The translations under genes were made by a program, and so were the position numbers. Of a DNA stretch of 52,528 nucleotides, positions 37,770 through 42,400 are shown piece after piece; the first letter of the stretch is position 1, and each line of letters starts with the position of its first letter. This DNA is from a virus (taxonomy: Duplodnaviria; Caudoviricetes), in IMG/VR virus record IMGVR_UViG_3300032332_001158, positions 1 to 52,528 of that record; one strand, given 5' to 3'. The notes beneath the pieces were generated by a model. The model was not told the DNA's origin and ran no database searches. It worked only from the letters and a program-made list of their open reading frames with translations.

Positions 37770-38320
37770 AATACTATCTTTTTTTCGTGACCTACTATAA
37801 TTGTAGGATCAATATACGATCTAAATCCTTTTTGCCTAGCTTTTTCTTGAAAAGTAAAATCTTCCCATTGGTCAGGATCTATAGGTTCGAATGGGTCTAT
37901 TATGTAATCTAGTACTTCACGTTTAACCAACATAAAACCCATTCCATTTGCTTTTACTTCAATTAAATTAGTTTGACCTTCAATATCATTAACAGTTAAT
38001 GTACGACCATCTACCCCACAACATGCAAATATGTCTGGTGTTTTTTTGTATATTCCTGATACTATGGGTAAATTGTGGTTTACTAATTTTTCAAGCATTT
38101 GGAAATTAAATACTTGATCACTATCAATCCACATATAGTGAGTTGGTCTTAGCATTTTGGCTCGATCAAGTAACGCTTGTCTATTGTAAAATACATTTGG
38201 AACATAACCTGTAACATGAAACCAATCCCATTCTTTAGGAATTGATTTTAATGTATTTGTCCAACTATTTAAAAATTTTTCCGAAAATTCTCTACCCGGA
38301 AGAATAAAACCTATTTTCAT
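37766..38320 (-). CDS. GT-A fold glycosyltransferase-like protein
   Basis: MWIDSD DxD motif, GMGFMLVKREV, ED..F, VGHEK. Confidence 0.75.
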   Translation of the reverse strand: MKIGFILPGREFSEKFLNSWTNTLKSIPKEWDWFHVTGYVPNVFYNRQALLDRAKMLRPTHYMWIDSDQVFNFQMLEKLVNHNLPIVSGIYKKTPDIFACCGVDGRTLTVNDIEGQTNLIEVKANGMGFMLVKREVLDYIIDPFEPIDPDQWEDFTFQEKARQKGFRSYIDPTIIVGHEKKIVL

Positions 38321-38321
38321 A

Positions 38322-38558
38322 TTAAAATCTAGCTTTAGCTACACTTGATTTATACCAAGGCAACCCATCACCACTTTTCTTTGCTTTCTTCCATTCATCC
38401 TTAGTATGCTCAAAACCGTTAATAAAATATTCTTCTTTACCATCTGGGTGGATTACAGCTGGGCCTTCCCAGTTATGTAATTTGCCATCTTTCATGTAAC
38501 GTACTGTGCCATCTGTTGATGTGTACTTTTTAACTTGTAATGATTGGTCTATTTCCAT
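38322..38558 (-). CDS. hypothetical protein with an LHxxxGPA motif
   Basis: GKLHNWEGPAVIHPDGKEEYFING. Confidence 0.65.
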   Translation of the reverse strand: MEIDQSLQVKKYTSTDGTVRYMKDGKLHNWEGPAVIHPDGKEEYFINGFEHTKDEWKKAKKSGDGLPWYKSSVAKARF

Positions 38559-38570
38559 AATTTTATTTTT

Positions 38571-38581
38571 CTGTAAATATA
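38571..38581 (-). promoter_or_regulatory. class 2 motif TATATTTACAG
   Basis: identical copies at 40921-40931 and 44305-44315, each before a non-structural gene. Confidence 0.55.
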
Positions 38582-38586
38582 CGACT

Positions 38587-39357
38587 TTATTTTGTTAAGA
38601 GCAAATCTTCAGCAACATAAATTCCTTGAGCTCCACTAACTGTAATTCCACGAGCAGATAAAGCATCTCCTACAAAATGTACATTGGGGTAATCAACTAA
38701 TGCTAAGTTTTTATAATCTACTAATGGTTCAGGGCTTAAATATTTTACCTCAGGAACATATATTCCATAATCACCACCAAACTCAAATATTTTATCCATA
38801 TCATTGATAAAGTTCTCAACATATGTAAAATATTCACCCATTACTTCTTTAACTGTAGTTAAATCAAATATTTGAGTAGTATTAATTAGTTCATGTTCTG
38901 ATGTTTTAGATGGATTTCTTAATGGGCTATAATATAAGCCTGTTCCACCAATTTGTAATTTATTAACAACATCTCTTGACCATTCAAATGGATTCTTAAT
39001 ACCTTTGATTTCCATTAGAATACCAAAGTTAGTCATATTGTTTCTAAATTCTTCACCTTTTTTAGCATGGCCATTATAACTAACATCACCATATGTTTCT
39101 TCTACTGCTACATAAGCTGCGTTATTGTTAGTACAGAATGAACGTAATGATACATTATCAAACTTTTGATATAGTTTAAAATCATAACTAACATCAATTA
39201 GTTTTTGGAAATATTTTTGTGGTGCTTCAAAACGTACTCCAATTTGTACTGATTTTGGTTCTGTAGGTAATTTATAATCGTTTGATAGTGATTGAGCAAA
39301 GTCAATACCTGATTTACCTACTGCGAAGATAAGAGAGTCGTATTTTATTTTTTTCAT
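38587..39357 (-). CDS. FAD-dependent oxidoreductase (COG2509-like), C-terminal half
   Basis: LIFAVGKSG, QIGVRFE, RSFCTN, YNGH, PEVKY, HFVGDALSARGITVSGAQG. Confidence 0.8.
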   Translation of the reverse strand: MKKIKYDSLIFAVGKSGIDFAQSLSNDYKLPTEPKSVQIGVRFEAPQKYFQKLIDVSYDFKLYQKFDNVSLRSFCTNNNAAYVAVEETYGDVSYNGHAKKGEEFRNNMTNFGILMEIKGIKNPFEWSRDVVNKLQIGGTGLYYSPLRNPSKTSEHELINTTQIFDLTTVKEVMGEYFTYVENFINDMDKIFEFGGDYGIYVPEVKYLSPEPLVDYKNLALVDYPNVHFVGDALSARGITVSGAQGIYVAEDLLLTK

Positions 39358-39368
39358 ATTATTTATTT

Positions 39369-39785
39369 TTAAAATTTAACCATAAAAATATCATCGTGTC
39401 CAAAATTTGATAGATCTGGTCTATTTTCAAATCCAAACTTTTTATAAAATTTAATCAAATCTTCTTGTGACATATTACTATTTGTATCATAATGCCCTCC
39501 TACGGATGCTCTTAATGCTACTGGTATTCTTTGTTCTTTAGCATATTCTATAGCACTTTGAATAATTTTAGAACCATATCCTTTTCCTTGAAATTCCGGT
39601 TTAATAGAAATATCATTAATGAATAATGCTTCTTCTCCGTCTGATAGTGTTTCTAGGCCAAACTCTATAATACCATAATCTTTATTTATGGTCACATAAT
39701 TACCAGTATCATAAAATTCAGATGCTCTACCCCAATTTATTGTTTCTTCTAATAAATCTATTAATTTAATTCTTTTATTTTCCAT
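39369..39785 (-). CDS. GNAT acetyltransferase with the shared leader
   Basis: ISIKPEFQGKGYGSKII acetyl-CoA motif A, LIKFYKKFGF motif B; N-terminal IKLIDLLEE. Confidence 0.85.
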   Translation of the reverse strand: MENKRIKLIDLLEETINWGRASEFYDTGNYVTINKDYGIIEFGLETLSDGEEALFINDISIKPEFQGKGYGSKIIQSAIEYAKEQRIPVALRASVGGHYDTNSNMSQEDLIKFYKKFGFENRPDLSNFGHDDIFMVKF

Positions 39786-40423
39786 CCTTTATACGTTTTT
39801 GCTTTATTTGTTATTAAATTATATATTCCTTTATATCTTAAATTATATTTCTTTTGAAAATCATATCTAATACCATTAAATTCTTCATTAGTATCTATAT
39901 TAATAAAAGAATAAATATTATTATCTACAAATTTATATTTTCCTTCTTCAGTATGTTTTGAACGTCCTTTCATTTTATTACTTAAATGTAATTTAAGTTC
40001 TTCGCTGTATCTAAATCCTTCAGGACGACCAATCTTAATACCTTGTTGTTTATTATGCTTTAATCCTTTATCTTTTCTAATTTTAGTTCTATTTTGTTTT
40101 ACACCTATTTTTTTAGATCTAATTTTTTCAATAGTTTCATCAGAATGAGTATTAGGACCGCCTCCACCTCTATTTTGATTTATTAAATTAAATCCCCATA
40201 TTTTAAACTGCTCAATCCAATAACATTCCCATTGTTTCCATTCTTCAATATTAACTTTATCTATAACATAAAAATTAATATTTTCTCCATATTCACGTTT
40301 CCAATCAGCTTCTCTAGATTTTACATTTTTTGTTTTACCTATATAAAATATATTATTATCTTTTTCTAAATAATATATAAAAGCTTTATTTTTTAGTTTT
40401 AACGGGTTTATATTCGATTTCAT
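39761..40423 (-). mobile_element. GIY-YIG homing endonuclease with NUMOD3-like repeats (ATG at 40423)
   Basis: FIYYL...FYIGKT...R, ECYWI, NLINQNRGG, HSDETIEKIR and YSEELKLHLS; C-terminal HTH-like YKGW. Confidence 0.85.
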
Positions 40424-40919
40424 TAGTTTCAAAATTTATGTCTATAACTTCAGTATTCCAAATGAAGTTAACTCCTTTCGATAATAAATATTGATACCAA
40501 GCAACTGCTATAAGAGAAAGATAATTACTTCCAATATGCCATACTGGGAATAAACGTAATCCAAAATATGGTTTGATGAAATCAGGTTCTGCTTGTGGGT
40601 CAGAGCAAAATATTTCTTTTGGTTTAGGATGGAAACGTCTAAAGTTACTGATAACTTGATCCATTAATTCCATTGCTTTCTCTTCACCACAATACTTTGA
40701 TAATACACCTCCGATAGCAGTATGATATGTTAATTTACCATCTGACCATCCACCAGCGCCTAGCATACCTGTCATTACTTCTTCAGGTAAACGATTATGT
40801 GGGTCATTTCCTTTGTCTATAATGGTGATTAATTCGCCTGGGTAGCCATTATCGACTAGTTTAGTTGCTGCGTTTATACCCGCTACTCCCGCACCTATAA
40901 TTACTATTTTCTTGTTCAT
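40386..40919 (-). CDS. FAD-dependent oxidoreductase (COG2509-like), N-terminal half; start revised to MNKKIVIIGAG
   Basis: IVIIGAGVAG Rossmann motif, GMLGAGGWSDGKL, WHIGS. Confidence 0.85.
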   Translation of the reverse strand: MNKKIVIIGAGVAGINAATKLVDNGYPGELITIIDKGNDPHNRLPEEVMTGMLGAGGWSDGKLTYHTAIGGVLSKYCGEEKAMELMDQVISNFRRFHPKPKEIFCSDPQAEPDFIKPYFGLRLFPVWHIGSNYLSLIAVAWYQYLLSKGVNFIWNTEVIDINFETNEIEYKPVKTKK

Positions 40920-40920
40920 G

Positions 40921-40931
40921 CTGTAAATATA
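40921..40931 (-). promoter_or_regulatory. class 2 motif TATATTTACAG
   Basis: 1 nt before the oxidoreductase ATG, after a terminator-like hairpin. Confidence 0.5.
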
Positions 40932-41012
40932 ATAAAGAAAGCTGTGACTTCCAAATGGAGCCACAGCTTCCTAATAATTTTTTTGTTAGCGACAGGCTAT
41001 GAATCTGTCTAT
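40931..41012 (-). ncRNA. candidate structured RNA / attenuator: short hairpin, A-rich linker, terminator hairpin
   Basis: GACAG/CTGTC stem; AAGCTGTG...CACAGCTT hairpin plus U-rich tail; lies between the ATATTTATA motif and the oxidoreductase. Confidence 0.4.
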
Positions 41013-41032
41013 ACTTCTATAAATATATTTGT

Positions 41033-41410
41033 TTATTGTATAAGACGTTTTTTTTCAAGATTATCCATACTTACTGACAAGTATGTTTCAAACTCATCTC
41101 CTTCATAATTATATGAACTTATGTTGTATGGGATGTTATACTGGTCTAAATATCCTTTCATTTCGTAGAATCCATCGTATCCTGGGTATTCAGGATCTTC
41201 TACTATTCCAAATACTACAGGGTTAGGATTAGATGGTTCTACAAATATGTTATCATCCTGGGAATAACCCTTTATAGTGGTGTTAGTGGAAGGTGATGTG
41301 TATATAATTGTTTCTTCATCAATCTTTTTAAATCGGCTACTTGGGAGTACTACTCGAATTTCTTGAAGTGCTATTTCTTGAATTAATTTTTTTAATTGAA
41401 ATTTATTCAT
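41033..41410 (-). CDS. hypothetical protein with the shared leader (MNKFQLKKLIQE...LQE)
   Basis: 125-aa ORF. Confidence 0.65.
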   Translation of the reverse strand: MNKFQLKKLIQEIALQEIRVVLPSSRFKKIDEETIIYTSPSTNTTIKGYSQDDNIFVEPSNPNPVVFGIVEDPEYPGYDGFYEMKGYLDQYNIPYNISSYNYEGDEFETYLSVSMDNLEKKRLIQ

Positions 41411-41413
41411 ATG

Positions 41414-42400
41414 TTATTTACATTTTACTAGATCATCTATGCGTGTAATATTAGTATCTTTTTTAAACGCAAAATATGTTGTATCTCCTATTTTTTGAGG
41501 GACATTATCTACTTTTAATTTATTTTTAAGAGATTCAATTGCTGGGTGGGTTGATGATACGTATAATACTCTGTTTCCACTTGAATTAGTTAAAGATTTA
41601 AAATACTTAGCATCTATGTTATCTAAACAAAATTTTTGTTTAATGGTACGAGATGCTTTAGTAGATGTTGCTCCTTCTCTTGGGAGTATAATAGATACAT
41701 AAAATGCTACTTGTTTTACTTCTGGGATGCTATTTTTAATATGTGCAAAATCTATACCATGTTGTGAATTATCATCTATAAATAGCATTTTTTCTCGCGC
41801 TAATATTTTTTCTAATTCATATTTGGGTTTAAAAAATTTTCTTGATTGAACATCATATCCTGAGCTTTTTATTTTACCACTTTCTGCATTCCACATTTTT
41901 TTAGCAGTGTTTTCTATTCTAGTTATCTGGGTTTGGCCTAAAGCTAATTCTTTATAATTATCAACTAACATGTTTTGCCAAGATGGGAATGTTTTTTTAT
42001 TTAGAGGTAAAATTTCTATTTTTGGATAATTATCTTTTATTACTTGAGCTATAAATGCAGATAAACCTTTAGAAGAACCTAAATAGTATACTACATCTGG
42101 GGTAAAACTTTTTGAAAACACTGAGCGGATTGAATTAAGAGTGATATTATATAATTCTTCTTCATTTATATTTTTTAAATTTTTTATATCGTCTGCTACT
42201 TTTTTAATTTCCTCTCCATTTTCATATTGGGGGTTATATTCAAAAGTATAATATATTGTGTTGCCTTCTCTTTGTGTGTCGCCATTAGTAGTAATTAGTA
42301 AATCTCCGGGATTGTTTGTTTGTATTAAAGTTAAACGGCCGTCTTTACTTCTAATAACTCCCTCATTAATAATTTCTTTTAATATATTAATTAATTTCAT
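41414..42400 (-). CDS. phosphoribosyltransferase-like protein with the shared leader
   Basis: MLFIDDNSQHG resembles a degenerate PRPP-binding loop; N-terminus MKLINILKEIINE. Confidence 0.5.
   Translation of the reverse strand: MKLINILKEIINEGVIRSKDGRLTLIQTNNPGDLLITTNGDTQREGNTIYYTFEYNPQYENGEEIKKVADDIKNLKNINEEELYNITLNSIRSVFSKSFTPDVVYYLGSSKGLSAFIAQVIKDNYPKIEILPLNKKTFPSWQNMLVDNYKELALGQTQITRIENTAKKMWNAESGKIKSSGYDVQSRKFFKPKYELEKILAREKMLFIDDNSQHGIDFAHIKNSIPEVKQVAFYVSIILPREGATSTKASRTIKQKFCLDNIDAKYFKSLTNSSGNRVLYVSSTHPAIESLKNKLKVDNVPQKIGDTTYFAFKKDTNITRIDDLVKCK

Follow-up and report, generated by a model that had tools for sequence, protein, structure and literature searches.

The viral record IMGVR_UViG_3300032332_001158 (Duplodnaviria; Caudoviricetes) is a DNA of 52,528 nucleotides (nt) that is approximately 33% complete. 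This whole stretch is referred to as the window. Between positions 38,587 and 40,919, the minus strand carries a gene for a putative flavin adenine dinucleotide (FAD)-dependent dehydrogenase, which sequence comparison places in a phrog_12409/COG2509-like family and which is present in two pieces. The pieces are separated by a free-standing GIY-YIG homing endonuclease gene and a GNAT acetyltransferase gene, and the four open reading frames (ORFs) are tightly packed head to tail in the order N-half, GIY-YIG, GNAT and C-half:

40386..40919, minus strand: N-half of the FAD-dependent dehydrogenase; ATG at 40919 (MNKK...), stop at 40386-40388, 177 amino acids (aa), GAGVAG dinucleotide-binding motif
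40386..40544, minus strand: tract specific to the split lineage at the 3' end of the N-half, approximately codons 126-177; includes the change E136->L
39761..40423, minus strand: gene for a free-standing homing endonuclease of the GIY-YIG type; the ATG at 40423 gives 220 aa, and the frame extends to a TTG at 40432 (39761-40432)
39369..39785, minus strand: GNAT acetyltransferase gene in a variable cargo slot, 138 aa; PF13508, PF00583
38587..39357, minus strand: C-half of the dehydrogenase; 256 aa from an ATG of its own at 39357; starts MKKIKYDSLIFAVGKSG

Counted from its ATG, the endonuclease ORF overlaps the N-half by 38 nt. The GNAT ORF overlaps the endonuclease ORF by 25 nt, with the first GNAT codons (MENK) inside this overlap, and the 11-nt gap from the GNAT stop to the C-half ATG is the sole noncoding part of the interval between the halves. 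The N-half ends in ...NFETNEIEYK, which is followed by the tail PVKTKK and the stop, and the C-half starts with M-K-K, followed by the second strand (IKYD) and then SLIFAVGKSG. In the C-half leader, every position from -20 to -1 is A or T (100% A+T). Here, only 3 of the 51 ORFs of at least 120 aa in the window have a Shine-Dalgarno (SD)-like 4-mer at -20 to -4, and the mean leader A+T is 0.82 versus 0.68 for the window overall. As SD-like motifs are this rare, an A+T leader is the normal start context in this DNA. An earlier note on the window, made from its letters alone, had listed these ORFs with their coordinates, the two overlaps, the gap and the AT-rich leader, and all of these are present in the sequence. 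In addition, the T4-type late promoter motif, which we take to be TATAAATA, has 27 matches in the window versus 17.6 expected and none on the minus strand inside 38587-40964, a result that is uninformative.

The two outer ORFs were compared with the 422 positions of phrog_12409, which is annotated 'dehydrogenase'. The N-half corresponds to profile positions 2-166 (E 2e-5) and the C-half to positions 185-418 (E 9e-9), and the N- and C-ORFs are therefore consecutive parts of one family, the profile of which is covered by the two halves together. Pfam finds the start of a Pyr_redox_2 or FAD/NAD Rossmann domain in the N-half, where the GxGxxG motif of the Rossmann fold is present as GAGVAG. One source names the family 'uncharacterized FAD-dependent dehydrogenase'.

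Intact relatives and the position of the break

A search with the C-half returned 6144 relatives. Among the best 120 of these, 107 are single proteins of 424-443 aa that are 80-98% identical and span both halves, and the adjacency of the halves is therefore far beyond chance. Twenty-eight intact alleles were confirmed as single ORFs of 425-492 aa. Distant relatives are likewise encoded by single genes, of approximately 410-470 aa, and among them are genes of Campylobacter phages with the annotation dehydrogenase. When the halves are set against P0003, a close intact homologue, the N-half is 88% identical to residues 1-168 and the C-half is 95% identical to residues 179-432.

Alignment with the intact homologues, a check that had been proposed for the locus, shows that no conserved residue is lost at the break. 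The break lies in the only hypervariable stretch of the protein, between ...INF and YDxLIFAVGKSG, where both length and sequence vary among the intact alleles. To place it in a structure, P0003 was folded with 40 aligned sequences, which gave a model with a predicted local distance difference test score (pLDDT) of 92.3 and a predicted template modeling score (pTM) of 0.88. With numbering transferred via the alignment, the break is the P0003 loop 173-177, between strands 167-172 and 178-181, and mean pLDDT is 73 in the block 171-180, lower than in any other block except the C-terminal end. The window keeps both strands of this hairpin, one as EIEYK in the N-half and the other as KIKYD in the C-half. 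The earlier proposal that the enzyme is broken at a surface beta-hairpin is thus borne out in the P0003 model.

Foldseek was used to compare the P0003 model with solved structures. The best structural match is VP0956 of Vibrio parahaemolyticus (3NLC), with E 1e-20 and TMq 0.70; phmmer of the P0003 sequence against the PDB returned nothing at E <= 0.01. The 3NLC and HI0933-like flavoproteins have the same FAD Rossmann fold with GxGxxG, and the difference from the enzyme here lies in the sequence, as identity to 3NLC is 18%. The latter is a structural-genomics entry, the title of which gives no function, and neither search yielded a named, solved relative whose substrate is known.

The hairpin at the insertion site (window 40386-40460; alignment columns approximately 165-195) was also looked at in its own right among the intact alleles, where it is hypervariable. 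The adjacent tail has a ratio of nonsynonymous to synonymous substitution (dN/dS) of 0.40 versus 0.085 for the core in intact-intact pairs. The variability could reflect a low-constraint loop or diversification under endonuclease pressure.

Condition and predicted fit of the two halves

Both halves were said to be free of stops, and this holds in the window and in all seven complete split alleles, in which neither half has a stop or frameshift. By dN/dS, the halves are not relaxed relative to intact alleles, although recombination and saturation of dS limit the power of this comparison. The median dN/dS of the N-core is 0.079 for split-split pairs versus 0.085 for intact-intact pairs, and that of the C-half is 0.198 versus 0.160. 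Between the window and L004, the nearest intact allele, dN/dS is 0.089 (dS 0.26) for the N-core and 0.103 (dS 0.39) for the C-half. In addition, of 213 columns without variation among the 28 intact alleles, the window retains 211 (70/71, 9/10 and, in the C-half, 132/132). The new ends are also regular: at seven of eight loci, the C-half ATG lies 3-5 codons before the conserved IK(Y/F)D. The residues that extend past the homology at the broken ends number 3-7 for the N-half and 3-5 for the C-half, with two N-half tail types among the split loci.

The pairing of the halves was modeled as a complex, using alignments of 7 and 12 natural rows, with L088 left out of the C-half set. The model has an ipSAE of 0.85 (runs 0.86, 0.81 and 0.85) versus 0.00 for the best control, so that the multimer prediction proposed earlier passes its controls; of 80 solved complexes, 58 attain this ipSAE mark, as do 2 of 110 mismatched pairs. 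The model also has a contact agreement of 94% or more and a partner pLDDT of 86 or more. Three sets of contacts are predicted. Residues 5-8 of the N-half and 7-10 of the C-half would rebuild the Rossmann sheet, residues 13-21 and 242-249 would pack the GxGxxG helix on the C-terminal helix (the GD(ALSARG) region), and residues 165-171 and 1-17 would rejoin the hairpin.

Recurrence, spread and cargo of the cassette

The arrangement is not confined to the window. The endonuclease occurs at 74-85% identity in nine other IMG/VR contigs, and in all nine it is at the same site. Seven of these show N-half, endonuclease and C-half, one (L090) ends after the endonuclease gene and one (L091) begins inside it. 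With regard to the earlier claim of a new natural split enzyme, the split is not unique to the window, being a polymorphism present in at least nine other viral contigs, and the phenomenon is already known. Intact alleles coexist with the split ones. Among the 80 best viral loci from the C-half search, 75 have adjacent N and C matches, of which 28 are the verified single ORFs. The other five comprise two with this cassette, two cut by the contig end and one (L003) with a different endonuclease. Homologues split without the insert had been named as evidence that would speak against an insertion. No such locus was seen among the 80 best viral loci and the endonuclease-carrying contigs, and every split allele seen has an endonuclease gene at the break.

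Trees were built from the seven complete split and 28 intact alleles; L083 was excluded, as its N-half is cut, and the remaining intact loci were not used. In the 93 nt beside the insertion, all seven split alleles form one clade, with a support of 99 in the Shimodaira-Hasegawa-like approximate likelihood ratio test (SH-aLRT); none of 500 label shuffles is as low. The trees of the N-core (405 nt) and of the C-half (699 nt) intersperse split with intact alleles and require six changes each. The starred branches force at least three changes in the N-core and at least four in the C-half, and 176 and 210 of 500 shuffles, respectively, are as low. A junction tract that forms one clade together with distal flanks that are scattered is the signature of homing with co-conversion. 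Consistent with this, pairwise dS is 0.09-0.72 for the endonuclease versus 0.85-2.19 for the N-core of the same loci, and the endonuclease genes are therefore younger than the host alleles. The cassette of the window is itself a mosaic: in 60-nt bins, identity is 95-100% to L084 over 40551-40371 and 93-100% to L086 over 40135-39385.

The extent of the junction tract can be read from the N-half, where the best identity to any intact allele drops from 0.93-1.00 to 0.53-0.87 from codon 126 on. The lineage-specific tract thus covers approximately codons 126-177 of the N-half (40386-40544) versus only approximately 10 codons of the C-half. This asymmetry suggests, on sequence grounds, cleavage to the left of the insertion, and the N-half tract is both the putative co-converted flank and the candidate target region of the endonuclease. 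Within it, position 136 is Leu in 7/7 split alleles and Glu in 28/28 intact alleles. The E136->L change could confer target immunity or could be compensatory.

The assignment of the endonuclease itself comes mainly from its relatives. Alone, the window protein scores below threshold against PF01541 (E 0.0013; 19.4 bits, cut-off 22.6), and 13 of the 15 aligned relatives match this family, with a best E of 1.8e-10, in keeping with the GIY-YIG call of the earlier note. The alignment has Y17, Y27, G29, E66 and N82 without exception and R37 in at least 90%; we take these to be the GIY-YIG catalytic positions, as defined for I-TevI. NUMOD1 and NUMOD3 were found by Pfam in three of the 15 relatives each, all of them distant, and no NUMOD motif was found in the window protein or its seven close homologues. 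Against sequences in the PDB, the window endonuclease gave only a chance match (E 0.72), and a profile of the family run against solved structures gave weak GIY-YIG-type matches only, to T4 endonuclease II (E 0.23) and UvrC (E 0.7), which are below the noise from repeat proteins. It thus differs from the solved GIY-YIG proteins in that its identity to them is undetectable by sequence and in that its C-terminal domain is without a NUMOD match. The eight close endonuclease copies are all open, with a median dN/dS of 0.31 (28 pairs), and the gene is therefore maintained. Known free-standing GIY-YIG genes have the catalytic motif, lie free between or inside genes and have flanks that are co-converted asymmetrically, and the same is found here.

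Endonuclease genes are also found at other positions near this enzyme. Nine loci with an intact dehydrogenase (L005, L019, L040, L046, L047, L048, L050, L053 and L079) have a distant GIY-YIG/NUMOD gene directly upstream, which is 37-53% identical to that of the window and lies approximately 350-650 nt before the dehydrogenase start (for example, L005:2802-3443). With upstream as well as inserted endonuclease genes, the dehydrogenase gene therefore has two endonuclease niches, an intergenic and an intragenic one, of which it is the neighbour or the target. At L003, a C-half of the 'MRKIKFD' type (488-1249) is preceded by a different GIY-YIG/NUMOD1 ORF (L003:1-486; C-terminus ...AFGYKWKYKNN), which stops 1 nt short of the C-half ATG; the contig ends inside the endonuclease ORF and the N-half is not visible. 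At least six further proteins of 253-254 aa in the protein database are C-half only and of this 'MRKIKFD' type.

The gene that follows the endonuclease gene is variable. Homology between split loci ends at approximately 39765, at the 3' end of the endonuclease gene, and resumes at approximately 39371-39389, which is 15-30 nt before the C-half ATG. The slot between is occupied by a GNAT gene in the window and in L086 (97% identical), by a HYD1-type ADP-ribosyltransferase gene in L091 (577-1050; Tox-ART-HYD1, E 1.3e-6) and by a weakly ADP-ribosyltransferase (ART)-like ORF in L083 (880-1347; 2CompART, E 0.001, below the cut-off). Five slot ORFs (L084, L085, L087, L088 and L089), plus a second one in L084, have no Pfam match, and at least eight different genes thus occur behind the endonuclease gene. 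The GNAT of the window matches PF13508 (E 1e-10) and PF00583 (E 4.6e-10). The slot gene begins with MENK in the window and at seven of the eight other loci (L083-L089 and L091), L087 having MNNK. A GNAT that is 77% identical occurs in the phage contig L099 (2498-2902), immediately after a 764-aa ORF. Its N-terminus there is MIKLIDIL, with no MENK prefix, and neither an endonuclease nor a dehydrogenase gene is nearby. As this copy is outside a cassette and lacks MENK, the GNAT gene has been captured into the slot. Of the endonuclease and GNAT cassette that had been described, both genes are present; the GNAT is a swappable passenger, one of at least eight slot genes, and not a fixed part.

Just downstream of the C-half lies a 78-aa ORF (38322-38558, minus strand; …GKLHNWEGPA…YFINGFEHTKDEW…), and look-alikes are found at the same position in L083, L089 and L091. 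The window encodes a terminase with 62% identity to its counterpart in vB_FspM_immuto, a T4-like myophage of Flavobacterium, and the carrier is probably a T4-like aquatic myophage with a host from the Bacteroidota. Missing SD motifs, which we take to be a Bacteroidota trait, fit such a host, given the 3/51 of the window. The dehydrogenase is an accessory gene: immuto, the closest cultured relative by terminase, has no match in a C-half search of the phage collection. Megablast of 38000-41500 against cultured phages likewise found no near-identical DNA. In a list of sequencing runs, the stretch occurs mostly in freshwater and lake metagenomes and RNA runs hold 0.05-0.08 of its words, from which nothing is concluded on expression or habitat.

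Interpretation and known parallels

We consider it likely that the dehydrogenase gene was split by a free-standing GIY-YIG homing endonuclease gene and that its halves yield separate polypeptides which associate again without a covalent bond; separate translation, assembly, activity and cleavage are predictions. Here, a single-copy dehydrogenase gene would have been hit by an insertion in the loop of a surface beta-hairpin of the FAD-binding domain. The four ORFs would form one packed unit that is probably co-transcribed. The C-half would have gained its own ATG (M-K-K), 11 nt past the cargo stop and behind the A+T-only leader, and would be translated separately. The N-half would supply beta1, GxGxxG and helix A of the Rossmann fold plus one hairpin strand, and the C-half the other hairpin strand, the neighbouring sheet strand and the C-terminal helix, with FAD bound only by the pair. 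The endonuclease would cut uninterrupted alleles near codons 126-177. Repair would then copy the cassette, with approximately 150 nt of left flank and approximately 30 nt of right flank, into the recipient, and the slot gene behind the endonuclease gene (GNAT here) would travel along.

Several points weigh against this explanation. As the record is only approximately one-third complete, a second, intact copy could lie elsewhere in the genome. On its own, the window endonuclease falls short of the GIY-YIG threshold of Pfam, and no DNA-binding family is matched by its C-terminal half. L088 has no junction ATG, its first in-frame ATG being 23 codons upstream. L084 and L087 break 10 of the 132 invariant C-half columns and L089 breaks 7 of the 71 N-core columns; in a leave-one-out control with intact alleles, the mean numbers of broken columns were 0.57 and 0.43, with maxima of 4 and 6. 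This excess could be mild relaxation or adaptation to the split. Constraint after the split is weakly measured because the cassette moved between backgrounds, and dN/dS mostly reflects time spent as intact alleles; in addition, dS is near saturation (proportion of synonymous differences, pS, approximately 0.6). Finally, the pass of the complex model may echo remembered single-chain folds such as 3NLC rather than fragment affinity. As single-chain relatives have been solved, the pass shows that the halves fit the family fold and not that they bind.

Some of these points would also fit halves that are non-functional remnants of a recent inactivation which have not yet decayed, the enzyme being dispensable for the phage. 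The enzyme is indeed accessory and without a match in immuto, the flanks of the window are separated from intact L004 by a dS of only 0.26-0.39, such that little time may have passed, and invariant columns are broken more often in some split alleles than in intact ones. We nevertheless regard remnants as unlikely. Both halves are open in 7/7 complete split alleles, their dN/dS is that of intact alleles and the window keeps nearly all of the invariant columns. A start codon stands exactly at the junction in 7/8 C-halves, and an endonuclease dS of up to 0.72 together with two N-half tail types indicates that the split state is not brand new.

It is extremely unlikely that a contiguous enzyme is made by removal of the 1 kb between the halves from RNA or protein, through a group I or II intron, a split intein or ribosomal bypass. 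Endonucleases in phage genes do often sit in group I introns or inteins, as is generally known and as the part of PMC10448857 on such genes indicates, and ...EIEY joined to KIKYD... would be a hairpin of plausible length. Set against this, the interval is all coding except for 11 nt, a stop closes the N-half and, at 7/8 loci, the C-half opens with an ATG of its own. No intron model among the 4227 Rfam families was matched in 38000-41500 (cmscan of Infernal, E <= 10), where there are four weak unrelated matches, and unrelated cargo reaches up to approximately 15-30 nt before the C-half ATG, which leaves no room for a conserved 3' intron core. A group I or II intron is rejected on both counts. 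A split intein is rejected as well, as the few extra residues at the broken ends are far too few for intein halves. The earlier reading from the letters, of no obvious room for an intron core and no in-frame intein, is thus upheld. An ancestral or endonuclease-independent split, in which a two-gene form was invaded later, is very unlikely. This option was raised for gene 43 of phages 25 and 44RR in the section of PMC2988022 that treats them, and the different GIY-YIG/NUMOD1 gene before the C-half of L003 indicates that more than one endonuclease lineage uses the break. However, no endonuclease-free split locus was seen among the 80 best viral loci and the contigs with the endonuclease, 75/80 of the best viral loci have N and C adjacent, and the distant relatives, Campylobacter phage genes included, are single genes.

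A split dehydrogenase gene with halves that would be made separately has a close parallel in nrdA of phage Aeh1, which had already been named and is the closest known case. This gene is split by mobE, and the fragments reassemble and depend for activity on insertion-derived tails, according to the passages of PMC3045599 that describe them; mobE is an HNH endonuclease, as given in the corresponding part of PMC2790892. In both cases, a free-standing endonuclease gene sits inside an enzyme gene of a T4-like phage, the insertion leaves two ORFs with a stop and a start of their own, neither intron nor intein is involved and both fragments bear short insertion-derived tails. The locus shares every computationally testable feature of the Aeh1 nrdA/mobE type and represents a further example of that phenomenon rather than a kind of its own. 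The two differ in the endonuclease (HNH versus GIY-YIG) and in the host gene, which encodes the large subunit of ribonucleotide reductase in Aeh1 and a non-essential flavoenzyme here. A functionally critical region is broken in Aeh1, whereas here it is a variable surface loop. Only here does the cassette have a variable second gene and do split and intact alleles coexist in many natural contigs. Reassembly has been demonstrated for the Aeh1 fragments and is predicted by a model for the dehydrogenase.

Further cases are described in the part of a T4 review that deals with split genes (PMC2988022), namely T4 gene 39/mobA/gene 60 and Aeromonas phage 25 43A/seg-like/43B, T4-type genes that are split at an endonuclease insertion. 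The split of gene 43 in phage 25 resembles the present one in that it involves a seg-like gene, which is of the GIY-YIG type. The host genes, for a topoisomerase (gene 39) and a DNA polymerase (gene 43), differ from the flavoenzyme here. In the same account, the origin of the split in phage 25 is ambiguous, whereas the junction-tract tree ties the split to the cassette here. The 'fractured genes' of Dassa et al. 2009 (PMC2677866, in the part that introduces them) are also host genes in two pieces with an endonuclease gene between, but there the pieces carry intein halves. In print, genes that a free-standing endonuclease has split and that nevertheless give a working enzyme are rare: the relevant statement in a 2023 paper is 'at least one instance' (PMC10448857), and the T4 review, in the section cited above, gives three cases. 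Within the literature searches made, which covered FAD-dependent dehydrogenase together with homing endonuclease and phage, and COG2509, no printed description of this split was found.

A more tentative idea concerns the slot. It is possible, rather than probable, that the cassette is a cargo-carrying homing unit, with a fixed left junction in the 3' end of the endonuclease gene that donates MENK to the gene behind it and a fixed right junction approximately 15-30 nt before the C-half ATG, between which unrelated protein-modifying genes are swapped and then delivered to new phage genomes by homing. The host enzyme would be kept by insertion-derived tails and E136L, which would stabilise an intermolecular beta-hairpin. 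The slot contents that prompt this idea are GNAT, the HYD1-type ADP-ribosyltransferase of L091 and at least six other ORFs.

The locus adds a flavoenzyme to these cases, with dozens of intact and approximately ten split alleles and two tail types, all from nature. This natural allele set opens the way to the rules for tolerated break points, the role of the tails, the length of the co-conversion tract and target-site immunity. In addition, the locus is a natural template for split-flavoprotein complementation, and it hints that homing cassettes may ferry accessory genes between phages.

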